Of a DNA stretch of 64,000 nucleotides, positions 23,049-43,175 are shown piece by piece. The stretch lies in contig CAJXCD010000006.1 in NCBI GenBank assembly GCA_913051545.1, positions 3,680 to 67,679 of the forward strand. The letters are read 5' to 3'. Position 1 is the stretch's first letter. Each line of letters opens with the position of its first letter. The stretch comes from an uncultured Chloroflexota bacterium. GTDB lineage: Bacteria > Chloroflexota > Dehalococcoidia > Lucifugimonadales > CAJXCD01. The notes under the pieces were generated by a model. The model saw nothing but the letters and a program-made list of their open reading frames with translations, was not told where the DNA came from and ran no database searches. Both the position numbers and the translations under genes were made by a program.

Positions 23049-23774
23049 TTAAGTTTGGCTAGTTTGATATAGAAGCATTTCTACAAGGCTAATATCGTTT
23101 TCGTTATCGATGTTCACAGATCTAGTACTTGGCATGATATATGGTCTTATGAAATCTCCGAACAGGCTGTCATTATTCATTATGACGTTCCGTTTAGTGA
23201 TATAAATCGCTCCGTTTCGTAAGTATGCTTTTGGCCTGAGGTCCTGTCGTCGACCTTCCCATTTTTGTGTCGGCTCACCAAGGTATGGTAAAAGTCTGCC
23301 TTTAGCTATTCGCTTTACAAGTCTTGGATGATGAGATGGTATTTCTTCAACACTTATGATTGAGTCACAATTAATATCACTTGTTAGTTTCAGTGCCTGT
23401 ATTATGTCCTCTTTGTTACGTAGAGGTGTAGTCGGTTGAAGCAATAGTACCCAGTCTATTTGAGTTCCGTCCTGATTTTCCACGAAAGAAACAGCATGCT
23501 GTACTAGCGGTAGGGTAGGGGCTTCGTCAGAGGCTAAGCTTATTGGCCTTCGGAAAGGAACTTCAGCACCTAATTTAACCGATACATCTGCAATTTCTTC
23601 GTCATCTGTACTTACTATTATTCGGTAGATATAATCTGAAAGTTCTAGTGCAGGTTCAATAGTATATGCAATTAGAGGCTTACCACAAACATTACGCAGA
23701 TTTTTTCTAGGAACACCTTTTGATCCTCCACGCGCAGGAATAATTGCTAATACTTTCTGATTATTTTTTCCCAT
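23049..23774 (-). CDS. acylneuraminate (CMP-nonulosonate) cytidylyltransferase, NeuA family
   Basis: 241 aa. Contains 'LAIIPARGGSKGVPRKNLRNVCGKPLIAYTI'. Confidence 0.9.
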   Translation of the reverse strand: MGKNNQKVLAIIPARGGSKGVPRKNLRNVCGKPLIAYTIEPALELSDYIYRIIVSTDDEEIADVSVKLGAEVPFRRPISLASDEAPTLPLVQHAVSFVENQDGTQIDWVLLLQPTTPLRNKEDIIQALKLTSDINCDSIISVEEIPSHHPRLVKRIAKGRLLPYLGEPTQKWEGRRQDLRPKAYLRNGAIYITKRNVIMNNDSLFGDFIRPYIMPSTRSVNIDNENDISLVEMLLYQTSQT

Positions 23775-24926
23775 TCAGTATGTTATACGTTTTTCTATGG
23801 TTAAAGGGATAGTTGCCAACAAGTCAGCGATGTGCTGTCCGGCATTCCCTTCGCCGTATAGGTTGCTCGACGGTAAACTGTTTTTGTTTATTTGATTTCG
23901 TGTCGCGGATACTATTGACTTTTTGTTATACGTAGCATCTGTCAAATTTGGACCTCTGTCTCTGCCAGTTTGCCGACTTCCTATATTTACCACAGGTAAG
24001 CCTAGGAAGGAACACTCTCTCACTCCCGCACTGGAGTTTCCGATAAGACACATGGAATTGACTAAAGTTCGGAGAAAATCTTCAGGGGTCATATTTTTGA
24101 AAAAATATACAAAAGGGATTTCATTAGTTTCCCTAAACTGCCGAATCCCTTTAGAAATTAAATCTGACCCTGCATCGACATTTGGCCAGAACCAGAGAGT
24201 AGGTAATGCCAATTCTTTGACAGCATTTAATGTGGCTCTGATCTGTGTTAGCGAGTCCTCGTATTCAGTGGTTACAGGATGTTGTAAGACTATGATGTAC
24301 CCTGAGGCGAGATCAACTATATTACCGACGCCGCCATACCTGGAAAATATATCGAATTGGGGTTTAGATTCGATACTTATTCGTTTGGCGAGGTCTATTG
24401 AAGGACACCCTGTGACAAAAATTCTGTCAGGGATTTCACCCATTTGTTTGACTCTTTGCGCGGCAATGTCGTTTGCCACAAAATGAACATCAGAGAGCTT
24501 TGTTACTGCGTGTCTAACTTTTTCATCAATTGACCCGCTAACTTCACCACCTTGTATGTGTGCGACTGGTATATTCATGTATGAAGCTGCTATAGCAGTG
24601 GCTATCGTTTCATATCTGTCTGCTACACTTACTACTACATCAGGCTTCAATTTATCGAATGTGGTGGCGAGCTCTGTAACAGCTATTCCGGTTGACTTGG
24701 CCGCTGCTACAGGATTTTCTCCTTCGAGCACGACGTATACCTCAGCATCGGGATCAAATCCGTCAGATTTAATCACGTCTATTACAGGTCCGTAACGTTC
24801 TAGTAGGGCTGATGCTCCAACCACAAATTGCAGAATTAACTCGTCGTGGTCTCGCACCGCTTCCAGTAGGGTTTTAATCCTAGCATAGCTAGGGCGTGCA
24901 GTTACGACGACACATACTTTACGCAT
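23775..24926 (-). CDS. neuC: UDP-N-acetylglucosamine 2-epimerase, hydrolysing (NeuC/LegG type)
   Basis: 383 aa. 'IPVAHIQGGEVSGSIDEKVRHAVTKLSDVHFV' matches the hydrolysing subclass rather than the WecB type. It directly abuts the NeuA gene. Confidence 0.85.
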   Translation of the reverse strand: MRKVCVVVTARPSYARIKTLLEAVRDHDELILQFVVGASALLERYGPVIDVIKSDGFDPDAEVYVVLEGENPVAAAKSTGIAVTELATTFDKLKPDVVVSVADRYETIATAIAASYMNIPVAHIQGGEVSGSIDEKVRHAVTKLSDVHFVANDIAAQRVKQMGEIPDRIFVTGCPSIDLAKRISIESKPQFDIFSRYGGVGNIVDLASGYIIVLQHPVTTEYEDSLTQIRATLNAVKELALPTLWFWPNVDAGSDLISKGIRQFRETNEIPFVYFFKNMTPEDFLRTLVNSMCLIGNSSAGVRECSFLGLPVVNIGSRQTGRDRGPNLTDATYNKKSIVSATRNQINKNSLPSSNLYGEGNAGQHIADLLATIPLTIEKRITY

Positions 24927-24943
24927 TGTTCAGTATCGATCCC

Positions 24944-25912
24944 TTAATTATTTTTTATCTCCGACAGATATTTACCTAATTTTTTGGCCATGAATAATTC
25001 TGTCTTAGCCATAGACTCATGCGTCGCCCCTGCTATGTGCGGTGTGATTATCAGGTTTTCATACTTTCTTGCATACTCCAATAAAGGATTTATATTTAAT
25101 TTAGTAATTAAGCGTTCATCGGATAATACATCTAAAGCTGCACCAGACAATTTGCCAGATTCTAAAGCAGAAAGCAGGGCTTGTTCGTCAATTAGTTGAC
25201 CACGGGAAGTATTGATTAGCACTGATCCGTCTCTCATTTGCCCTATTTGCTTTGCCCGTATCATATTTTTGGTATCGTTATTTAGGGGTACGTGTAGGGT
25301 AACTACGTCACCATATTGTAATAGATCATCTAAACACTCAGCTCTATCTACCGAGCTGTGCCAATGAGAGTTATGAGAATCAAATGCCATCACATCCATA
25401 TTAAAAGCTAGGCCGTAATTAGCTATCTTTCTTCCAACTCTCCCTAGTCCTACTATACCTAATTTAGCACCGTCCAAATCATGGCCTTTATAATCATCTC
25501 TGTTCCACTGACCATCTTGGACTGATGTGAACGCCGACGGTATTTTGCGTTGTAGAGCAAGTATGAGAGCCCATGTATGTTCCGCTGATGCGCTGACGGT
25601 GTCCATGAACTTGGCCTCTCCCTGGAGGCTTAGTATTTGGATACCTTTACTATCAGCGTATTCCTTATCTATATGATCTAAGCCTGTAGTGGCTGAGACT
25701 ATAGCTACGAGGTTAGTAGCGGCATCGATAACATTCTTGTCAATTTCATACGACAGCCTAACAATTAATACATGGTATTTGCCAATTTGTTTCAAGAGCT
25801 GCGCACGGGTTAGTTCAAGTTCATCTACATGCCCGAATTTTTTTAACTCATCCAGAGCATTTTTTGAATAACCAATAGGTTCAATGTTAATAATGTTAAA
25901 GTTTGAATCCAT
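24944..25912 (-). CDS. D-isomer-specific 2-hydroxyacid dehydrogenase family protein
   Basis: 322 aa. Contains 'GIVGLGRVGRKIA', 'NTSRGQLIDE' and 'TPHIAG'. Confidence 0.85.
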   Translation of the reverse strand: MDSNFNIINIEPIGYSKNALDELKKFGHVDELELTRAQLLKQIGKYHVLIVRLSYEIDKNVIDAATNLVAIVSATTGLDHIDKEYADSKGIQILSLQGEAKFMDTVSASAEHTWALILALQRKIPSAFTSVQDGQWNRDDYKGHDLDGAKLGIVGLGRVGRKIANYGLAFNMDVMAFDSHNSHWHSSVDRAECLDDLLQYGDVVTLHVPLNNDTKNMIRAKQIGQMRDGSVLINTSRGQLIDEQALLSALESGKLSGAALDVLSDERLITKLNINPLLEYARKYENLIITPHIAGATHESMAKTELFMAKKLGKYLSEIKNN

Positions 25913-25939
25913 AGAATTCTCGAATACAAAAAATTAGAG

Positions 25940-26923
25940 TTAGATGCTCGGCGACGGTGGTTTGGCTAGGCTTTTTTCATTAAGTTTATGCCAAATCCAA
26001 GGATAAGTTTTTAATATGCCATCTTTAAGGGAAATTGATGGCTCCCACCCTAGCACATTACGTAATAGTGAGTTGTCGCTGTTACGCCCTCTGACTCCCT
26101 GAGGTTTCGTAGTATCATGATTCTTGGTTAGATTTTTGCCGGAGATTTGCAAAGTGTAATCAACTAATTCGTTTACAGTGACTATTTCTTCAGTACCCAG
26201 ATTAATTGGTTCTGTGTAGTCACTGCGCATTATTCTTAGCAATCCTTCAACGCAATCGTCTATGTGGCAAAAACTACGCGTCTGCTCTCCATCACCCCAC
26301 ACTTCAATTGACGAACCGTCCGTTGCTTCAGCCACCTTTCTCATTATCGCTGCAGGTGCCTTTTCTCTGCCGCCTTCGTATGTGCCTAGTGGTCCATATA
26401 TGTTGTGAAACCTAACAATACGTACATCTATCCCATGATCTTCAGAATAGTAGGATGTGAGCTGTTCTGAAAATAGTTTTTCCCATCCATATCCTTTTTC
26501 TGGATCTGCCGGGATTGCTTCGGTTTCGGTAAGTGGAGTCACATCTTCTTTCTCTTGTAAAAAAGCGGGATATACGCAAGCTGAGCTGGTGTATAAATAT
26601 TTTTTCACTCCAGATATCCGAGTGGCTTCAAGCATGTGACTATTAATTAGTACGTTATTTCGTGTGAGGATTCCATGGTTACTGGAGATATATCCTATGC
26701 CACCCATATCAGCAGCTAAATTGTAAACGTGATCTATTTCGTGGGTTACAGAACAGCATTCCGTATAATTTCGAAGGTCTGCAACTACAAATTCATCAGC
26801 ATGACTACTCTCAAACTCTGGTGCTTTTATGTCAGCTCCCCTTACCCAGTGTCCTTCAGATTTTAATCTGGACACAAGGTGGTGTCCTATGAACCCCCCT
26901 GCTCCTGTGACGAGTATTTTCAT
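25940..26923 (-). CDS. extended SDR, GDP-mannose 3,5-epimerase (GME)-like
   Basis: 327 aa. 'GAGGFIG', 'ADMGGIGYISSNH', 'YGWEK', 'RFHNIYGPLGTYEGGREKAPAA' and 'GVRGRNSDN' match long conserved stretches of GME as I recall them. Confidence 0.75.
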   Translation of the reverse strand: MKILVTGAGGFIGHHLVSRLKSEGHWVRGADIKAPEFESSHADEFVVADLRNYTECCSVTHEIDHVYNLAADMGGIGYISSNHGILTRNNVLINSHMLEATRISGVKKYLYTSSACVYPAFLQEKEDVTPLTETEAIPADPEKGYGWEKLFSEQLTSYYSEDHGIDVRIVRFHNIYGPLGTYEGGREKAPAAIMRKVAEATDGSSIEVWGDGEQTRSFCHIDDCVEGLLRIMRSDYTEPINLGTEEIVTVNELVDYTLQISGKNLTKNHDTTKPQGVRGRNSDNSLLRNVLGWEPSISLKDGILKTYPWIWHKLNEKSLAKPPSPSI

Positions 26924-26975
26924 GGCAGCCCTCTACATATGTATGTTTGTGTGAGAAGTATATTAATTTATTTTT

Positions 26976-28031
26976 CTAGTCCATTGGTGCTAAATCGGTT
27001 TCAGACAGGAACGAATCTATCGATATGTCTCGAACTAGTGTACGTCCGATAATCTTGTGTAAATTTGAAGCTGGAATACCAATTCCCGGTTTTTTAAGAG
27101 ATAAATGTTTTTCTTCTAGTAAAGTTCCAGACTTAAGGTCATTCCGCGCGACAATACTCTTTGTAAAAGTTCTACGCAATTCACTAAGTTCATTAGCTTT
27201 CAAATCTTTGTTTACTGGATGTTCTGTCACAGTTTCTATGTACCTGACTCCATCTACAAGTTGTCGGAGTTCCTGGGTTGTTATTGATGACGGTATGTCA
27301 GGACCAAAAAGATGTCTACTCAAAGTGACATGTACCTCAAGCACGTCAATTCCAATAGTAGCTGCACTTAGTCCGGCATACACTTTCCCTGAATGATCGG
27401 ATAGCCCCACGGCACAATTATACCTACTGCGGTATTCAGATATCACGTTCAACCCAATTTCTTCTGGCACACTTGGGTATGCAGAGGTGCATTGTAGAAT
27501 TGCTAAACCAACGCCACTTGCTTTTATGAGATTAACAGAAGCATCTATCTCTTCAAAAGTACTCATTCCAGTTGAAAGGATAATCGGTATCCCCGTTTCT
27601 GACATAATTTTTAGCATAGGAAGGTTGTTTGTTTCTCCAGAACCAACTTTCCATGCAGCAACTCCAACTTTTGTTAATAAGTCAACTGCTTCGATTGAAA
27701 ATGGGGTACTCATAAAGGCGATGTCACGATCCTCAGCATGGCTTTTCAGTCCGTGCCATTGATCCAGTGTAAATTCCATCCGTTTCCAATACTCATATCT
27801 AGTGTCGTCCTGTTTACTGAATTTAACGCGCCAAGGTTCTGAGGGCGTACTTTCAGCGCTTGCTATATGGGTTTGGAATTTCACAGCATCAGCACCTGCG
27901 TCAGCTATTGCGTCGATAAAAGCATGAGCTAGTCCCAGGCTACCATCATGATTTTGTCCGACTTCTCCTATAATGAAGCATGGGTTACCAATTTTGAACG
28001 GGATATTTACTGTTTGATCTTGAGTGGACAT
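26976..28031 (-). CDS. NeuB-family nonulosonic acid synthase (module 1), with C-terminal SAF-like extension
   Basis: 'PCFIIGEVGQNHDGSLGLAHAFIDAIADAGADAVKFQTH'. I prefer ATG 28031, which has GGTGA 5 nt upstream, over the listed 28055. Confidence 0.9.
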   Translation of the reverse strand: MSTQDQTVNIPFKIGNPCFIIGEVGQNHDGSLGLAHAFIDAIADAGADAVKFQTHIASAESTPSEPWRVKFSKQDDTRYEYWKRMEFTLDQWHGLKSHAEDRDIAFMSTPFSIEAVDLLTKVGVAAWKVGSGETNNLPMLKIMSETGIPIILSTGMSTFEEIDASVNLIKASGVGLAILQCTSAYPSVPEEIGLNVISEYRSRYNCAVGLSDHSGKVYAGLSAATIGIDVLEVHVTLSRHLFGPDIPSSITTQELRQLVDGVRYIETVTEHPVNKDLKANELSELRRTFTKSIVARNDLKSGTLLEEKHLSLKKPGIGIPASNLHKIIGRTLVRDISIDSFLSETDLAPMD

Positions 28032-28041
28032 ATAATCACCA

Positions 28042-28917
28042 TCAAATTTTACCAATATATTTTCTAGGGTGCATTACAGTAGCAATCGAACTGGTTATTG
28101 GTCGTAGCTTTGGTTTACGATAGCCTAGTCTCATAAGCCCCTTGCTAAGTATACGTCTGTTCAAACGTCTGTTGAGACCATTAGTAGATAATTTCCAAGT
28201 CGAATCATATATAGAGTATCCAGATGCTATTTTGCCAGAAAGTTCACGATTCCTTTTAATTTCAGGTCCATTCCATATCCAATCAGTGCCCCCTGGAACT
28301 GATTCCCACCCGTGGTTCTGGTGAAACACTTTTGATACTTCAGTGGCGTCTATAGTTGGTACTCCCTTCGACAGAGCACCGTATATTAGCCACTCATCCC
28401 AGCAACCTCTACCGATTGCGAATGGTGGTATAGATGGCCATGTACCTTTAGTGAAAGCAAAGTAATCCATACCTTGGCGCAAATCACTTTCTAAGGATTG
28501 TATTTTGTATATTTCTTTCCAGGTGGTCTGGTTACTGAAATCAAATTCAGTATCTATATTAATACCCCATGATAGGCCTACCATAAGGAAAGGTTGTTTT
28601 TTAATTGATTTCAAGGCAAGTATGAAATCTTTAGTGAGTATTATATCTGCGTTTACGTAAACAATAATGTTATTAGATGCTGAGATCTCAGCAGATTCAA
28701 ATAAAGAATTTACCAAAGGGGTTCCATGCTCATTACATAGTACGTCAGGAACATGCTTGACCCCAAAGTCTGCGGCACATTGAGATGTACCCTTATCATC
28801 ACCGATTAATATCACCTCTACATCTGGATCTAGATTTACCCAACTTGATATTGCATTTCGTTGGATAACTTCGAATTTGTTTACGAAAGGCCTAGGAGTA
28901 GTAAATATAGTGATCAT
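28042..28917 (-). CDS. putative GT-A-like glycosyltransferase of an uncharacterised family
   Basis: 'MITIFTTPRPF..IQRNAISSW ... VILIGDDKG ... YVNADIILTKDF'. I chose ATG 28917, which sits 1 nt after the upstream TGA, instead of the overlapping 29019 start. Confidence 0.45.
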   Translation of the reverse strand: MITIFTTPRPFVNKFEVIQRNAISSWVNLDPDVEVILIGDDKGTSQCAADFGVKHVPDVLCNEHGTPLVNSLFESAEISASNNIIVYVNADIILTKDFILALKSIKKQPFLMVGLSWGINIDTEFDFSNQTTWKEIYKIQSLESDLRQGMDYFAFTKGTWPSIPPFAIGRGCWDEWLIYGALSKGVPTIDATEVSKVFHQNHGWESVPGGTDWIWNGPEIKRNRELSGKIASGYSIYDSTWKLSTNGLNRRLNRRILSKGLMRLGYRKPKLRPITSSIATVMHPRKYIGKI

Positions 28918-32001: not shown

Positions 32002-33519
32002 CTAGGTCAGTGAATTGGAAGTAGCCAAATCACTTATGTATTGAGCGATCCTGTCAGCACTATTACCATCAATATATGTACACTCTTGGATGGCAAAATC
32101 ACGACGTTGCTTGGAGTGTAGTTTAGGATTATCAACGTAAGTATTGATTCCTTTTATCATTTCATCATAGTTCATAGCCACAATACTGGTATTTGAATCG
32201 ACTATTCTTTCATGCGTTGGCCAGTCTAATGCGTCCATGATAGACATTAACCGACCTTCTTTCCACTCGCTAGGCGGATCAATCGCTACACTCACTATTG
32301 GTGTATCATTTAAGGCTGCTTCTAGTACCATAGTTGAAAACAGTGTTACAAAAACGTCACTATATTTAAGTAGGGACGATACGTTAATCATATCATTCTT
32401 CGTGGTTGCATTTGCTACAGCATCAGTACTGAAATCAGGAGTATTGATATGGACATCAGGTATTGATCGGGCAATATCCTTATATATTTCAACCTCTTTG
32501 AGAGTTTGCAAATCTGATTCAATGGAATCGTTCCGTGGCTTCTTGAAGTGCGAGGGATGGAGACGAATTAATAGCTGACTAGGGTGATTGAATTTATCTT
32601 GTGCAATTGCTTGGGCTAAAGCTTGTACTATTCCAACGTTTGAAGATATCCCTACAAATGTGCAACCGAAAGAAATTAGTTTTTTGGATGGATCAAGTCC
32701 ATTCTGGACTAGATATTCTTTGCAACTCATTGGTGGTTCGCTTTTTTTGTAGTGATCAAAATATGCTACGCCTCCAACATCGATAGATTTGGCAGATACG
32801 TCGCATCCGTCGACAAGTTCATTTTTCTGAATCTCAGACCAAGTTCTTATTCGGTCTGGCATTGCAAGTGGTAATCCCTGACTCGCGGTATGATCCCATC
32901 CAACAAGAATGGCAGTGGATGGCACTCCTCGTTTGCTGGCTTCTCTTATGATTACCTCCTCTCCAGGCCACCATCCAGGACTATTTGTAACTACTAAAGA
33001 AGGCCGATATTGAGTAAATGGATCGTATCCGAGCGATTTAATTGGTCTGGCAGAAGCAAATTTACGAAATATTTGACGTGATATTTGCGAACGTTGAAGG
33101 ATACTAGCTAATAGGTTCCAGATAGGTAAGAGAAATCTAAATTTCGTATGGTTCCATTGCCTATTTTGGTGAGTCTGTACATCACGAAACACCGATCGAT
33201 TCATTTTGTTACTTACGCCAGCCATGCGTAGGTACTGTACAGTTGATTCCATTATCGTTACTAAAGTTGAATATAGCCATCCCGATTTACTTGTATGTTG
33301 ACACATACTGAGATCACTCAACTGTACAGATGGCAAAGAAAGCTTCAGATCATTTTCAACTTTGTTACTGTTAGGGACCAATGCAACTACTTTGATTCCA
33401 GATTTTATGAGATTGGCAATTATTCCAGTATGAAAAAAATAGCGTAATCCCGTGCCAACAGATGTGACAATCAAAACAGTAATCGAATCTTCTTTGTTAT
33501 TCTTGTTTATGCTATTCAT
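32002..33519 (-). CDS. uncharacterised GT-B-like protein (paralogue B); candidate CMP-ulosonic-acid transferase
   Basis: 505 aa. 'GLDPSKKLI', 'SDVFVTLFSTMVLEAALNDTPIVSV' and 'IDGNSADRIAQYI' parallel the CDS at 15453-16706. Confidence 0.45.
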   Translation of the reverse strand: MNSINKNNKEDSITVLIVTSVGTGLRYFFHTGIIANLIKSGIKVVALVPNSNKVENDLKLSLPSVQLSDLSMCQHTSKSGWLYSTLVTIMESTVQYLRMAGVSNKMNRSVFRDVQTHQNRQWNHTKFRFLLPIWNLLASILQRSQISRQIFRKFASARPIKSLGYDPFTQYRPSLVVTNSPGWWPGEEVIIREASKRGVPSTAILVGWDHTASQGLPLAMPDRIRTWSEIQKNELVDGCDVSAKSIDVGGVAYFDHYKKSEPPMSCKEYLVQNGLDPSKKLISFGCTFVGISSNVGIVQALAQAIAQDKFNHPSQLLIRLHPSHFKKPRNDSIESDLQTLKEVEIYKDIARSIPDVHINTPDFSTDAVANATTKNDMINVSSLLKYSDVFVTLFSTMVLEAALNDTPIVSVAIDPPSEWKEGRLMSIMDALDWPTHERIVDSNTSIVAMNYDEMIKGINTYVDNPKLHSKQRRDFAIQECTYIDGNSADRIAQYISDLATSNSLT

Positions 33520-33531
33520 TACTTTAGAGAT

Positions 33532-34401
33532 TTAAGTTCGGCGTAGCTTTTTCATGACAGATCTTTCACTATCATATACCCGTTTTACCCCGTCACCCAT
33601 AGCGGATTCTATGACACGGATATCTCGTACGAGTCGGTGTAGTCCCTGAGGTTCTATCGATGCTGACTGGTCAGAACCCCACATCGCCCTATCCAGAGTA
33701 ATGTGACGTTCTACGAAGCACGCCCCTAGTACAACGGCTGCAATAGTAGTTTGTAGCCCCGTCTCGTGTCCTGAATATCCAATAGGGCAGTCAAATTTGT
33801 TTTGGAGAGACTTAATGGTATTAAGGTTGAGTTCTTCTGCCGGACACGGATAGGTGCTTGTACAGTGACATATGACCAAATTATCTTTGTCTAGTAGTGA
33901 TACAGCATGATCTATTTGGTCCATAGTTGACATACCTGTGGAAATTATAATTGTCCTTTTCGTTGAATGTAATTTTGTTAAGAGGCTGTCATCAGTTAAG
34001 CATGCTGATGCTATTTTGTACCCAATTGGTTCAAATTGCTCCATGAAGTCTACGGATTCTTCATCCCAACAAGAACTGAACCAAGAGATATTATTTTCCT
34101 TACAATATTTGTCTATTTCATGGTACTCTTGTTTTCCGAATTCCACCTTGTGCCTGTAGTCAATGTAGGACATGATTCCCCAAGGTGTTTCACGTGGAAT
34201 GTCGCGTTGTTCGGGGGGGACACAAAGTTCAGGGGTCCTTTTTTGAAATTTTACAGCATCACAATTAGCTGAAACGGCAATGTCAATCAATTGCTTCGCT
34301 ACGTTGATATCGCCATTGTGGTTTATGCCTATTTCAGCAACTATATAGGTAGGAATACCTTCCCCTATAATTTCTTTCCCCCAATTGACTTTGTTGCTCA
34401 C
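33532..34401 (-). CDS. NeuB-family synthase (module 2), short form without SAF-like C-terminus
   Basis: 289 aa. Contains 'PTYIVAEIGINHNGDINVAKQLIDIAVSANCDAVKFQKR'. It ends about 60 aa earlier than the other two NeuB homologues. Confidence 0.85.
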   Translation of the reverse strand: MSNKVNWGKEIIGEGIPTYIVAEIGINHNGDINVAKQLIDIAVSANCDAVKFQKRTPELCVPPEQRDIPRETPWGIMSYIDYRHKVEFGKQEYHEIDKYCKENNISWFSSCWDEESVDFMEQFEPIGYKIASACLTDDSLLTKLHSTKRTIIISTGMSTMDQIDHAVSLLDKDNLVICHCTSTYPCPAEELNLNTIKSLQNKFDCPIGYSGHETGLQTTIAAVVLGACFVERHITLDRAMWGSDQSASIEPQGLHRLVRDIRVIESAMGDGVKRVYDSERSVMKKLRRT

Positions 34402-35594
34402 TATGATTGGACCTCCAGTTTCCGAATCACTAATTCAGAAATTTCTCGCACAGCACCACGTCCGCCATCTTTTGATAGCACAATATTCGCTTGAGATATT
34501 ACATCGGGATGTGCGTCATTGACTGCGACGCCACATCCCACTTCACGCATACATTCCAGATCGTTAATGTCATTCCCTACGTATACTAAATCTTTTAGAC
34601 ATAGTTCGTTTTCATTTGCCCATATTTTTAGTGCATCCAGTTTGTTATCAACTCCAGTAAAGCAAGGGATACCAAGTTTTTCACACCTAGTTTTTACGAC
34701 ACTATTAACTTCTGACGATATCACTATGATTGGGAGTCCCGTGGATCTCAATTTTGATATACCCATACCATCGCTTCGATCACAAATGACAGATTCACAA
34801 CCATTTTCTGATACCAGAACTAGGTTGTTTGTCAAAACACCATCGAAGTCAAAGACTAGTCCAGATACATGGTTTGGGAGCACTTGTGTACTTATTCGCA
34901 CTTTTTGTTCAACTATACGTGTCTCAGCAAGAATAATGTCACTAGGTTCATCTATTTCAAGACAACGTTCAGTAGGCATGACGTACATGGCAGTTGTTCC
35001 TACGAATCGATTTTTGGACTTCTGGAATTCATGTACTTTCATTACATACACAGCACCTGTTTCAAGGAATTGAGGGCTTAGATCTTGTCGAAGCAGTCGT
35101 TTATCTTTAGAGTGATTAATCCCGACGGAATTTCCACTTCGATTTTTACTCCACAAGAAATAGTGGAATGGTGTTACGGATAATGCCGAATCAGCATTAT
35201 CGTTGATAAGAGCGTCTACAGTCCCATCGATGTCTTCTGCTAAGGTGAGGGGTGACGTGCACTGAAGGAAAATCAATATTTCCGGGACGTATCCTTCTGT
35301 TTTTTTCAAGTGATCTAGAGTATGCAAGAGAGCCGATTCTGAAGAATCTTTATCGCCACTGATCTCTGAGGGGCGTTTAACTATATCGGCGCCATATAGA
35401 TTTGCCACTTCTGCGATTGTGTCGTCGTCGGTGGAGACAACAATTCGAGGTGCACATTTCGCTTTTTTAGCAGCCTGGATACTGTAAGCAAGAATAGGTT
35501 TCCCATCTAACGGTACAATATTCTTGCCTGGTATACTTTTTGATCCTCCCCTCGCCGGGATTACACAAAGTATTTCCATTAGATTCGTGTCCAT
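34401..35594 (-). CDS. bifunctional NeuA-type cytidylyltransferase / KdsC-type HAD phosphatase
   Basis: 397 aa. The N-terminus has 'VIPARGGSKSIPGKNIVPLDGKPILAYSI'. The C-terminus has 'LVFDFDGVLTNN ... VYVGNDINDLECM ... GVAVNDAHP' (HAD motifs I and IV, KdsC-like). Confidence 0.85.
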   Translation of the reverse strand: MDTNLMEILCVIPARGGSKSIPGKNIVPLDGKPILAYSIQAAKKAKCAPRIVVSTDDDTIAEVANLYGADIVKRPSEISGDKDSSESALLHTLDHLKKTEGYVPEILIFLQCTSPLTLAEDIDGTVDALINDNADSALSVTPFHYFLWSKNRSGNSVGINHSKDKRLLRQDLSPQFLETGAVYVMKVHEFQKSKNRFVGTTAMYVMPTERCLEIDEPSDIILAETRIVEQKVRISTQVLPNHVSGLVFDFDGVLTNNLVLVSENGCESVICDRSDGMGISKLRSTGLPIIVISSEVNSVVKTRCEKLGIPCFTGVDNKLDALKIWANENELCLKDLVYVGNDINDLECMREVGCGVAVNDAHPDVISQANIVLSKDGGRGAVREISELVIRKLEVQS

Positions 35595-35707: not shown

Positions 35708-37162
35708 TTATGTAACATTTGAAGGCGCTATAACGATTGACTCTGATTGGTATGGTGCTATAAGGTCCTTTTCCTTCACGGTTGACACTTCCACAGGATC
35801 CAACGCAGATGTTTCGTTTATTAGACTGGAAGAAATCAGTGGTTCAACTAGGTTTTCAACGTCCGATAAACTAAACTTCTTTTCTGTATATCGATCTGTA
35901 AATCCTATTGGCTTTACAGTTTTAAATTTTGAAAATGACAGTTGTGTAGGGAGATTCAAGCTTAACCGAAGATGTCTTGCAACTTTCGCGACATTTCTGC
36001 GAGTACCAATAAAATTTTCGTGTAGGCCATAAGCATGTTCTTTGCATAAAGACCTTTTAGGGGAAGTCTGGCTTTTACTTAACATCTCAATAATTTTATC
36101 TGAAACTCTTCGATGAGAATTCCCGTCAACTTTGTGGAACCACTTATCTATGACCGTTTTCTGTTTGTTTTTTACTTCTTGGGGGACATCGAACTCCCCA
36201 TTTATTATTGAGCGTAGAGTTTTCACTAAAATGTTCTCCGAATCACAAGGTACGCTCATAGCTTCAGCCGACTCTAATAATGGCCATGATTCAATCCACC
36301 TCGGGGACAGCGCAGGTACCCCACCTAGTGTTGCATCGATTGCGGTAGAGCAATTCCTTTGAATAACGGCTGAAGCGCGTAATATCCAGCCCGATATATC
36401 TCCATATTTTATTACGTGAAGATTGTCGTTTTGTATCATCCCGTCATATCCACGTATGTTTTCGAAGGGATGAGGGCGGTATACGAATGTGACTTCAGGA
36501 AAAGATGAGGCTAATGAGTTAGCAAGTTGAATTAGCTGTGACATTGTTGCCTTTTGGATGTTTTGACGCTCAATGTATTCATCCCGTTTAAATCCATAAG
36601 TTCTATCTGCTGCATTGATTATAGATTCCGGGGTCGAAAATTGCGGATTTGCTAGTCCAGCTTTACTGCTGATTAGAACCATCGGTTTTGGGTATTCGTT
36701 AGCGTAAAGTGAAAACTGTTTAGAAGCTCTATTCCAAGGATTTTTGTAAAGATCGAATCTTGGAGATCCTGTGACTGTTATTTGTTTCTTGCTATACCAG
36801 CATCGTTGCTCGGCGATTTCGGCTAGTTGGGGTCCCCAGGTAAAAAAACCTTTGACCTTATTACGAAGGTCTGTATCTTCAGGTAGTGTTAGTTCGTAGT
36901 GATCCCAGTTTGCCCAGATGCCTTCTGTGTCCATCACACCGATTTGTATGTTAGCCTCTACGAGTTGCTTAGCGAATTCTTGGATATTTTTACGCAGGTA
37001 GTTAAGTAATACGAAGTCTGGGGCGAGGTGCCAGACCTCACGCTCGCGCTTATTAAATGGGACTAGATAACAAGTGACTCCACTTTTGCAGAGTCTTAGG
37101 GCAAGTAGGACTGCACCAGGGAGATCTCTATATGGGTGATCTACTATTAGTGATACTCGCAT
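35708..37162 (-). CDS. uncharacterised GT-B-like 'surface carbohydrate biosynthesis' protein (paralogue C, more divergent)
   Basis: 484 aa. 'ASAVIQRNCSTAIDATLGGVPALSP' and 'VDGNSHRRVSDKI' echo paralogues A and B. There is a TAATG overlap with the LmbE-like gene. Confidence 0.4.
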   Translation of the reverse strand: MRVSLIVDHPYRDLPGAVLLALRLCKSGVTCYLVPFNKREREVWHLAPDFVLLNYLRKNIQEFAKQLVEANIQIGVMDTEGIWANWDHYELTLPEDTDLRNKVKGFFTWGPQLAEIAEQRCWYSKKQITVTGSPRFDLYKNPWNRASKQFSLYANEYPKPMVLISSKAGLANPQFSTPESIINAADRTYGFKRDEYIERQNIQKATMSQLIQLANSLASSFPEVTFVYRPHPFENIRGYDGMIQNDNLHVIKYGDISGWILRASAVIQRNCSTAIDATLGGVPALSPRWIESWPLLESAEAMSVPCDSENILVKTLRSIINGEFDVPQEVKNKQKTVIDKWFHKVDGNSHRRVSDKIIEMLSKSQTSPKRSLCKEHAYGLHENFIGTRRNVAKVARHLRLSLNLPTQLSFSKFKTVKPIGFTDRYTEKKFSLSDVENLVEPLISSSLINETSALDPVEVSTVKEKDLIAPYQSESIVIAPSNVT

Positions 37163-41349: not shown

Positions 41350-42417
41350 CTACTCGTTGTATCGCAGAAACATATCCCAAGATAAAGGTTCGTCATCTTC
41401 TATATCACGTATAGCAGTAGCACCTATTACTACATCCATTAGTTCTGTAGGTATTCCTGTGCCAGGTCTTTTCACTGCGATCTTTTCCTCGGTAACCAAC
41501 TCACCAGCATTTATTGGCGTAGCGGCGCATAGACTGCGTCTTCCAACGTCTTTCATTGCCTGCTCAGCAGGTGTACTAATTTTTCTTGGACTACCTAGTA
41601 CCATTTCTATGAAATCTCTTGCTTGTACGAGTGAATCGAGCTGGTCTGGAGTAAGCGAGAAGTGATGGTCAGGCCCTGGTAGGCTCTGGTCGACAGTGAT
41701 GTGTTTTTCTATCATGTTTGCCCCGATAGAAATAGCAACTTTGGACACGTCAATGCCAGGGGTGTGATCTGAGAACCCCACTGGACGTCCAAAAGCCGCC
41801 TTCATTGTCGGTATAGCTTTCAAGTTTACATCTTTAGGGTCAGTAGGGTAATTTGAGACACAATGGAGAAGAATGATTTGGTCGTTTCCTGTTTCCGTTA
41901 TTGTATTTATTGCTTTCTCAATATCACCCAGAGTCGACATTCCAGTGGACAGCACAATAGGCTTGCCTGTCTCACCCACACGCCTTATTAGTGGGAAATG
42001 GGTCATTTCGAACGATGCTATCTTGAAAACAGGAACATCAAATTCTTCCAGTATTCCTACATCTTCTATTCCAAATGGAGTCGACATAAAAGGGATCCCG
42101 ACTTCATGACAATATTCAACTACGGCTGGTTGAATTTCATACGGGAATTCTGTGGCTTGTATAAGGTCGAACATTGTTGCATCGTCGCCCACTTCCATAC
42201 GAGAACGGAAATGTTCCATCATAGGAGTTTTTTTTGAGTACATCTGCTCTGCTTCGTAGGATTGGAATTTCACAGAGTCTGCATTTGCATGAACTGCCAT
42301 GTCCACAAGTTGCTTCGCAAGATCCAATTGTTGGTTGTGATTACATCCCGCTTCAGCAATTATAAAACTAGGATTGCCGTCACCCACTACTCGCTGGCCT
42401 ATGCTAACGGTTTTCAT
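41350..42417 (-). CDS. NeuB-family synthase (module 3; PseI-like by context), with SAF-like C-terminus
   Basis: 355 aa. Contains 'PSFIIAEAGCNHNQQLDLAKQLVDMAVHANADSVKFQSY'. Confidence 0.9.
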   Translation of the reverse strand: MKTVSIGQRVVGDGNPSFIIAEAGCNHNQQLDLAKQLVDMAVHANADSVKFQSYEAEQMYSKKTPMMEHFRSRMEVGDDATMFDLIQATEFPYEIQPAVVEYCHEVGIPFMSTPFGIEDVGILEEFDVPVFKIASFEMTHFPLIRRVGETGKPIVLSTGMSTLGDIEKAINTITETGNDQIILLHCVSNYPTDPKDVNLKAIPTMKAAFGRPVGFSDHTPGIDVSKVAISIGANMIEKHITVDQSLPGPDHHFSLTPDQLDSLVQARDFIEMVLGSPRKISTPAEQAMKDVGRRSLCAATPINAGELVTEEKIAVKRPGTGIPTELMDVVIGATAIRDIEDDEPLSWDMFLRYNE

Positions 42418-42437
42418 TATATCCTCCTTGAAATTTG

Positions 42438-43175
42438 TTAGGATTGTAAATCATCCCAAGCCTGAATTAGTTCTCCCAGAGAGAACATGTCATCGTTAGT
42501 AGACAATTTTCCATACAACTTTTCCATCGTATGGAAGGACTCAGGAGTGTCTACAGAGATGTTGATATCCGGTCTATCTAATCCACTTGGTGCTTTGATA
42601 GTGCCTACTCTATATTTATCCCTATTATCATAAGCATAAAAATATATGTGCTCACGATACTTGTGGCGTGAGTCTGCACCAAGGGTGTCAGAATCAAGTC
42701 GAAGTAGACATTCTCCTGTAGAAACCTCAGCACCAGCCCCAAAAGGGTATGAGTTGTTTAGAAATGGAGAGCAGACGTCTAGCCTATCACTCTCGAGTTT
42801 TTTGATCGTGTGGCGGATAACTTCAGGGTCTATTGCCATGTTGTCAGCATTCACTCTGACTACGATGTCAGCCGAGTCATACTGCAACACTTCTATAAAA
42901 CGAGAAAGCACATCATCTTCACTGCCACGGTGAAATGCCCACGAATACTTTTCTGATAGGTCAGATAGCACGTCATTCTCCGTGTTCACAGATGTAGCGA
43001 GGTAAACTTCGTCTAATGTGTTGCATGCCTGTATTCTTCTCATAACCTGTACTATTGAAGGATATCCGTTTAATGGCAACAGGACTTTCCCTGGGAGTCT
43101 TGTAGAACCCATCCTAGCTTGCACTATTGCAATTACTCTAGCCAAAAACCTTTTTCCCAGTTCGTTGAAATTCAC
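42438..43175 (-). CDS. SpsF/PseF-type cytidylyltransferase (CTP_transf_3-like)
   Basis: 245 aa. Contains 'VIAIVQARMGSTRLPGKVLLPL'. The listed start is GTG; a downstream TTG is also possible. Confidence 0.8.
   Translation of the reverse strand: MNFNELGKRFLARVIAIVQARMGSTRLPGKVLLPLNGYPSIVQVMRRIQACNTLDEVYLATSVNTENDVLSDLSEKYSWAFHRGSEDDVLSRFIEVLQYDSADIVVRVNADNMAIDPEVIRHTIKKLESDRLDVCSPFLNNSYPFGAGAEVSTGECLLRLDSDTLGADSRHKYREHIYFYAYDNRDKYRVGTIKAPSGLDRPDINISVDTPESFHTMEKLYGKLSTNDDMFSLGELIQAWDDLQS

Follow-up and report, generated by a model that had tools for sequence, protein, structure and literature searches.

A SAF-less NeuB-family synthase and an overlapping NeuA-HAD fusion gene in a Chloroflexota genome make up a complete cassette of a kind widespread in bacteria, with Kdn as its likeliest product

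Which nonulosonic acid is made when a NeuB-family synthase without the C-terminal SAF domain is encoded next to a cytidylyltransferase fused to a phosphatase, and does its synthesis pass through a phosphorylated sugar? The question is raised by two genes in a 64,000-nucleotide stretch of contig CAJXCD010000006.1 from an uncultured Chloroflexota bacterium (assembly GCA_913051545.1), referred to below as the window. Genes of this kind carry the database labels "N-acetylneuraminate synthase" and "acylneuraminate cytidylyltransferase", and a published survey found synthases of N-acetylneuraminic acid (Neu5Ac) and of 2-keto-3-deoxynononic acid (Kdn) to be indistinguishable from annotation (PMC10483923). 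Since Kdn is abundant in environmental biomass (PMC10483923), a correct assignment helps to link chemistry to genomes. Together, the overlapping genes make up one intact copy of a cassette that is widespread among bacteria, and we consider it probable, judging from their sequences, that they provide three coupled activities for making cytidine monophosphate (CMP)-activated Kdn by way of a 9-phosphate intermediate. In the proposed scheme, the short NeuB would condense phosphoenolpyruvate (PEP) with mannose 6-phosphate (Man-6-P) to give Kdn 9-phosphate (Kdn-9-P), the haloacid dehalogenase (HAD) domain at the C-terminus of the fusion would remove the 9-phosphate, and the N-terminal NeuA domain would then combine Kdn with cytidine triphosphate (CTP) to give CMP-Kdn. 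The biochemistry of such a route is already established in Bacteroides and in Prymnesium. As summarized in PMC6200933 from Wang et al. 2008, the Kdn pathway of Bacteroides thetaiotaomicron comprises the synthase BT1714, the phosphatase BT1713 and the CMP-Kdn synthetase BT1715, and the Kdn-9-P synthetase of the alga Prymnesium parvum was found by assay to be strictly specific for Man-6-P (PMC6200933).

Both genes of the window lie on the minus strand. The synthase gene (33532-34401) starts with GTG and encodes a SAF-less protein of 289 amino acids (aa), a candidate Kdn-9-P synthase. The fusion gene (34401-35594) encodes 397 aa, of which residues 1-235 (34890-35594) form the NeuA, or CMP-nonulosonate synthetase, domain as the N-terminal half, and residues 236-397, with the stop codon (34401-34889), form a KdsC-type (C0) HAD phosphatase domain, a candidate Kdn-9-P phosphatase. 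At the junction, which reads TCA TAG TG, the stop codon of the fusion and the start codon of the synthase share one nucleotide (TAGTG), and a GGAGG stands about 10 nt 5' of the GTG, both of which fit the expected translational coupling of the two genes. A preliminary description of this DNA had reported the 289-aa NeuB homologue, its 1-nt overlap with a 397-aa cytidylyltransferase-HAD fusion containing DFDGVLT and GNDINDLE, and a SAF-like tail on only the other two NeuB copies of the window. All of this was borne out: both domains of the fusion were matched, both motifs were found, and the other copies, at 26976-28055 (359 aa) and 41350-42417 (355 aa), carry SAF tails of about 70 aa that the 289-aa synthase does not have.

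The short synthase has every appearance of a complete enzyme. Its residues 38-273 match the Pfam NeuB domain PF03102 from the first position to the last (1-241 of 241, 3.3e-81). The longer profile TIGR03569 scores 269.3 bits against a cut-off of 399.65 and aligns only over positions 1-278 of 329, leaving its SAF part uncovered, and the profile scan of the protein returned no SAF match. A canonical N-acetylneuraminate synthase combines a TIGR03569 score above the cut-off with a C-terminal SAF domain bearing Arg314, and the 289-aa protein has neither. There is also no room downstream of the synthase for a frameshifted or displaced SAF remnant, as the next gene begins 12 nt past the stop codon. 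Counterparts of the NmNeuB catalytic residues E25, K53, Q55, K129, S132, H215, E234, H236 and D247 are all kept. In the window synthase these are E23, K51, Q53, K129, S132, H212, E231, H233 and D244, which are invariant in the short clade and common to classical NeuBs, and the equivalence of K51 and Q53 with K53 and Q55 of NmNeuB is supported by direct alignment to 1XUU. At least 8000 homologues were retrieved in a search of 5.8 billion proteins; the best 120 are 67-74% identical to the window synthase and have the NeuB domain and no SAF domain, and 119 of these 120 are 281-309 aa long. The reading of the short NeuB as a truncated pseudogene is ruled out by this family length, by the conservation and by the abutting downstream gene. 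About 30% of nonulosonate synthases, mostly from environmental bacteria, were reported to have no SAF domain, with no functional reason offered, and in NmNeuB it is from the SAF domain that Arg314 reaches the substrate site (PMC8208679); having no such domain, the window synthase has no counterpart of that residue. One 480-aa metagenomic protein (P0117) joins a short NeuB, 69% identical to that of the window, to a PF01973 domain.

Both halves of the fusion match known enzyme families. Residues 10-169 match CTP_transf_3 (PF02348; 7.7e-23), and the PseF model TIGR03584 matches residues 9-225 with 142.6 bits, under its cut-off. The motifs PARGGSKSIPGKN, LQCTSP and E-I-D align to their counterparts in NmCMAS, mouse CMAS and PpNeuA, and the features that characterize a CMP-nonulosonate synthetase, namely a P-loop of the form PARGGSK..KN, QxTSP and a C-terminal acidic metal pair, are all found in the domain. 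Residues 241-391 match KdsC-type HAD models: TIGR01670 gives 101.6 bits with hmmscan and 104.2 bits in the genome search (cut-off 106.95), and NF007019 (KdsC) gives 106 against a cut-off of 208. Motif I (DFDG, with both Asp), the Ser of motif II and the Lys of motif III align to those of E. coli KdsC. The preliminary description had named a missing nucleophile Asp as grounds for abandoning the phosphate route, and the Asp is present in this alignment. Motif IV has the form GND, which goes together with the DFDG of motif I. All of 12 fusions compared across several phyla have this form and the same KdsC-like substrate-site residues, and GND occurs as well in the free-standing Streptomyces protein 3MMZ.

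We screened 301 evenly sampled genomes of the window's own phylum for NeuB and for KdsC-type HAD. NeuB is present in 49 of them and the HAD in 37, all 37 falling within the 49, and none of the 252 genomes without NeuB encodes a KdsC-type HAD. In 35 of the 37 carriers the HAD lies no more than 1.3 kb from a NeuB gene. The two exceptions (G085 and G103, with loci L037 and L038) belong to a single genus and have both the fusion and a short NeuB, on different contigs; there the NeuA-HAD fusion is 70-124 kb from a long NeuB on the same contig. The preliminary description had called the route atypical for bacteria, which stands when the comparison is with textbook pathogens only; among environmental bacteria the route is common, as the 37 genomes of the phylum sample illustrate.

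The association reaches across phyla. Of 27 short-NeuB loci, which represent at least seven phyla, 23 have a NeuA domain next to the synthase and 18 have a KdsC-type HAD there. Fusion of the HAD to NeuA is seen in Acidobacteriota, Actinomycetota, Chloroflexota, Thermodesulfobacteriota (L022) and Myxococcota (L001); at four loci (L004, L005, L009 and L027) the HAD has a gene of its own immediately before or after the synthase; and in Microtetraspora fusca NBRC 13915 the whole cassette is fused into one uninterrupted frame of 688 aa in the order NeuA-HAD-short NeuB (L007:4801-6867, plus strand). A check proposed in the preliminary description, whether the fusion accompanies short NeuBs elsewhere, is answered by NeuA-HAD fusions beside short NeuBs in several phyla. 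The free-standing copies beside the synthase argue for a catalytic rather than a purely structural role of the HAD. A profile search of the window's genome found the fusion domain to be its only KdsC-type HAD. A function as the Kdo-8-phosphate phosphatase of lipopolysaccharide synthesis (Kdo, 3-deoxy-D-manno-octulosonate) was considered and rejected: there is no other KdsC, the genome has a single match to the 3-deoxy-D-arabino-heptulosonate 7-phosphate (DAHP) synthase family (a match that does not distinguish KdsA from DAHP synthase), and KdsC-type HADs occur in the phylum sample only with NeuB.

The synthases themselves fall into groups that follow this linkage. Trees were built by quick IQ-TREE searches with support from the Shimodaira-Hasegawa-like approximate likelihood ratio test (SH-aLRT) only, the larger one comprising 69 NeuB core domains. 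Seventeen classical NeuBs, which have SAF and no linked HAD and include both long copies of the window, are set apart with 99% SH-aLRT support from a group of 52 that contains all 38 HAD-linked synthases. Inside the latter, the window synthase belongs to a SAF-less clade of 31 (100% support). Bacteroidota have a second SAF-less clade in the group, which suggests two or more losses of the domain; several HAD-linked clades retain SAF. Every member of the group of 52 has Lys-Arg straight after KFQ (or KLT), a pair found in none of the 17 classical NeuBs. This signature was derived in the present analysis and is not a curated definition. The pair aligns to T56/H57 of NmNeuB, adjacent to the substrate-binding Q55, which contacts the sugar in the structure of Gunawan et al. 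It is also found in the assayed Prymnesium enzyme and in the synthases whose neighbouring HADs match the BT1713 model best. In the window synthase it is Lys54-Arg55 after KFQ, accompanied by the motifs YSGHE and MWGSD; the window has both KFQKR and a phosphatase domain encoded in the overlapping gene.

The absence of the SAF tail, in contrast, does not mark the route, although the preliminary description had linked the two. The synthases beside the best BT1713-model matches keep SAF, and shortness fails in the other direction as well. Among solved structures the short NeuB is matched best (2.5e-40) by 6NCS, a 290-aa SAF-less "N-acetylneuraminic acid synthetase" from structural genomics, which has KFQAYN and YSDH, i.e., classical motifs without the Lys-Arg pair of the window synthase, and is probably not a phosphosugar enzyme. 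With both a short form that has classical motifs (6NCS) and HAD-linked forms that have SAF in existence, the step from "short" to "phosphate route" is invalid alone, and the conclusion stands on other evidence. The further claim that the phosphatase points to a sugar-phosphate substrate is supported by the gene linkage, the domain fusions and the Lys-Arg signature.

What sugar, then, would the cassette make? When the NeuA domain is aligned to PpNeuA (9T4Z), the Arg of KNRF falls on Arg196 and E-x-D falls on the metal-binding motif, while NmCMAS has Phe192. Arg196 is the Kdn gatekeeper of PpNeuA: it clashes with a 5-N-acetyl group, and the R196L substitution shifts the preference from Kdn to Neu5Ac (PMC12934254). 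About 23 of the 27 NeuAs encoded next to a short NeuB have the gatekeeper Arg, as do four of four Bacteroidota fusions; classical NeuAs, including that at 23049-23774 of the window, have Leu or Trp at this position. A Pfam tally of 123 neighbour proteins from 21 cassettes is one of glycosyltransferases and epimerases, and its 25 commonest families include no kinase and no NeuC-type epimerase, which fits a substrate drawn from central metabolism. Man-6-P is available through a type II phosphomannose isomerase/GDP-mannose pyrophosphorylase (PMI/GMP) encoded in the genome. These points make Kdn the likeliest product. More generally, a 9-phosphate (Kdn-type) route can be called from three features taken together: linkage to a KdsC-type phosphatase, Lys-Arg after KFQ in the synthase and the gatekeeper Arg in the partner NeuA. 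To the known biochemistry this adds, modestly, the linkage counts, the Lys-Arg signature and a subfamily of GND phosphatases.

Two variants of the cassette were encountered along the way. Eight loci in other Chloroflexota families (L030, L031, L033, L034, L035, L039, L040 and L041) have a second type of HAD-linked module, in which a NeuB with both SAF and Lys-Arg (351-431 aa) is accompanied by a HAD (GDD or GND) and a NeuA that are encoded by separate genes. At the six loci whose NeuB falls in an all-HAD-linked clade, five NeuAs were aligned, and these have Thr or Met rather than Arg at the gatekeeper position; the product of this module may differ from Kdn and is perhaps Neu5Ac-9-phosphate-like. 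In two Chloroflexota families, at L036 (7038-8285 and 2561-3340), L044 (same layout), L037 and L008, the NeuA half of the fusion is divergent ('QTGHIDA...HSMT') and has no gatekeeper Arg. L036 and L044 encode a second, solo NeuA with the Arg about 1.7 kb from the short NeuB.

The cassette was compared with the two characterized Kdn pathways. The Prymnesium synthetase was compared through one 78-aa fragment, hand-translated from the supplement of the paper, over which the window synthase is 36% identical (52 bits, against 20-40 bits for the classical NeuBs of the window). Like the window synthase, the algal enzyme has no SAF domain (312 aa, counted from the published construct), and both have KFQKR, the motif W-D and the block W-x-G-(S/T)-D-x-x-A-S-x-E-P. 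The gatekeeper Arg and the E-x-D metal motif are likewise common to PpNeuA and the NeuA of the window. The fragment is 61-74% identical to Bacteroidota short NeuBs that are paired with NeuA-HAD fusions; the window synthase shares the Prymnesium architecture and not its subclade. Unlike the window, the alga has neither a KdsC-type phosphatase nor a fusion, and the P-loop of PpNeuA has Val where the window has Lys.

For Bacteroides, we used as proxies the Bacteroidota HADs that score above the cut-off of NF058599, the Kdn-9-P phosphatase model (243-254 bits), and their neighbouring synthases, whose orthology to BT1714 is inferred. The three activities predicted for the window are those of Bacteroides, and the two systems share the C0 HAD fold of KdsC type (PDB 3E81 matches the HAD of the window, 1.4e-16), and the synthase beside BT1713-model matches has the Lys-Arg pair as well, in the form KLTKRD. 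The differences are that Bacteroides has three separate proteins where the window has NeuA and HAD fused, that the inferred BT1714-type synthases (344-345 aa, directly upstream of the HADs) keep SAF, and that motif IV is GDDLND in BT1713 and GNDIND in the window, the Bacteroidota fusions also having GDD rather than GND. Directly upstream of the BT1714-like synthase, two Bacteroidota loci (L066:7304-8983, minus strand; L068:2841-4517, plus strand) have an open reading frame (ORF) of 558-559 aa whose N-terminal domain is NeuB-like (E about 1e-21) and whose long C-terminal part has no assigned family.

Two further systems bear on the phosphatase. Vertebrates and "some bacteria" are known to have a NeuA-HAD architecture of two domains (PMC8636478), and both halves of the vertebrate CMP-sialic acid synthetase (CMAS/CSS; PDB 1QWJ and 3EWI) match the fusion of the window. 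The mouse C-domain is reported to be inactive and to serve oligomerization, whereas the HAD of the window is the only KdsC-type HAD of its genome and, unlike the CMAS C-domain, is of a type that is interchangeable with free-standing genes in relatives. In Leptospira interrogans, a nonulosonic acid synthase with a C-terminal phosphatase follows the same logic, the fused phosphatase implying a 9-phosphate intermediate (PMC3438082); there, by a likeness drawn from the published description, the phosphatase sits on the synthase rather than on NeuA, and the proposed product is Neu5Ac (Ricaldi et al. 2012).

Several observations weigh against a CMP-Kdn cassette. The HAD stays below the curated cut-offs, including that of NF058599, on which it scores 83-86 bits against 180. 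The Asn of its GNDIND aligns to Asp125 of E. coli KdsC, the Mg ligand, although the other two Asp of the motif are kept. Ten of 36 short NeuBs have no HAD in the surrounding DNA that was examined. The window synthase, at 36% identity to the Prymnesium fragment, sits in a SAF-less clade separate from that of the Prymnesium-like Bacteroidota enzymes. The NeuA domain, like most short-NeuB-linked NeuAs, keeps the P-loop Lys (GGSK) that Kdn-specific synthetases reportedly do not have; this residue (Lys16 in NmCMAS, Val23 in PpNeuA) binds CTP and was not described as a determinant of sugar specificity (PMC12934254). Finally, mouse CMP-sialic acid synthetase has a homologous C-domain that is reported to show no phosphatase activity (PMC8636478), and sequence conservation alone is therefore no proof that the HAD is active.

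Three other explanations were considered. One keeps the phosphorylated route and changes the sugar, the product being some other, possibly undescribed ulosonic acid that is built from a different sugar phosphate and tailored later by the large locus. The window clade, with its YSGHE and MWGSD motifs and GND-type HAD, is just 33-41% identical to both characterized Kdn-9-P synthase lineages, the HAD is far under the Kdn-9-P phosphatase cut-off, and the operon continues with genes for a methyltransferase and a nucleotide-sugar dehydrogenase. We nevertheless regard this as unlikely, because the gatekeeper Arg of the partner NeuA suits a 5-hydroxy sugar such as Kdn and no isomerase, cupin or SIS domain is found in or beside the cassette to supply an unusual sugar phosphate. 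A related idea, to which we attach similarly low credence, concerns the whole SAF-less clade with YSGHE/MWGSD and a GND-type phosphatase, from Actinomycetota to Chloroflexota: its product might be a 9-phosphorylated ulosonic acid different from Kdn, made with a phosphatase subfamily that has an unusual Asn metal ligand, and the Lys-Arg pair might be the general determinant of phosphate recognition, by which annotation could tell NeuBs that use phosphosugars from those that use free sugars.

An animal-like Neu5Ac route, in which N-acetylmannosamine made by NeuC of this locus would be phosphorylated and condensed to Neu5Ac 9-phosphate, with dephosphorylation and activation to follow, seems to us quite improbable. 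It draws on a NeuC inside the window (23775-24926), on three ROK-family kinases in the genome, on the Lys of NeuA that is typical of Neu5Ac-specific enzymes and on a similar proposal for the Leptospira synthase-phosphatase fusion by Ricaldi et al. (PMC3438082). That NeuC, however, adjoins its own NeuA and shares its block with a NeuB that has SAF, 2 kb away; no kinase is encoded in the locus or among the common neighbours of such cassettes; the gatekeeper Arg, as in PpNeuA, would clash with the 5-N-acetyl group; and the window synthase has no equivalent of the SAF residue Arg314. We consider it very improbable that the HAD is a non-catalytic oligomerization module, as in the vertebrate enzyme, beside a short NeuB acting on an unphosphorylated sugar. 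The Asn in place of the first acidic residue of motif IV, the lack of measurable phosphatase activity in the mouse C-domain and the short NeuBs that have only a plain NeuA nearby would agree with such a module. Against it, DxD, Ser, Lys, the remaining motif IV Asp and the KdsC-like substrate-site residues are invariant across the 12 fusions, other lineages encode the same HAD by itself next to the synthase, the Lys-Arg signature goes with linkage to the HAD, and the GND variant is itself conserved, including in free-standing 3MMZ.

Returning to the Kdn cassette, the sugar would probably be attached to a surface glycan by the two glycosyltransferase-like proteins encoded on either side, both on the minus strand. 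Upstream, a "surface carbohydrate biosynthesis protein" of 484 aa (35708-37162), a candidate nonulosonate (Kdn) transferase, scores 275 bits on TIGR04396 (cut-off 125) and 128 bits on the BFO_1060-family glycosyltransferase domain, and its homologue is syntenic with the cassette in two Acidobacteriota loci (L002 and L025). BFO_1060 itself is implicated as the transferase of a legionaminic acid derivative in Tannerella forsythia (PMC5420450). Downstream, a glycosyltransferase-like protein of 505 aa (32002-33519), another candidate for transferring or polymerizing the product, has a weak TagF/BFO_1060-type C-terminal half (PF04464, 1.4e-06; NF046086, 45 bits), with homologues directly downstream of the short NeuB in L002, L009, L022 and L025 and about 3.7 kb upstream of it in L008. 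A comparison of the two flanking proteins found no close paralogy between them. The methyltransferase of the operon was considered as a conserved partner of the cassette and set aside, as it shows no orthology with the methyltransferase of L002.

The wider locus has three NeuB/NeuA pairs within about 20 kb on one strand: a NeuC-linked set (23049-28055), the phosphate-route cassette (33532-35594), which is the simplest of the three, and a PseC/PseG-linked set (41350-43175). Judging from this gene content, a single locus may make three different nonulosonic acids. It would then be a surface-glycan locus encoding three nonulosonate pathways, one of which would draw directly on central mannose 6-phosphate. 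Among the neighbour proteins tallied above, four of 123 match DUF6716, a putative glycosyltransferase family (best E 6.6e-130), in actinobacterial loci among L007-L018, where it is a candidate transferase for placing the product in wall glycopolymers.

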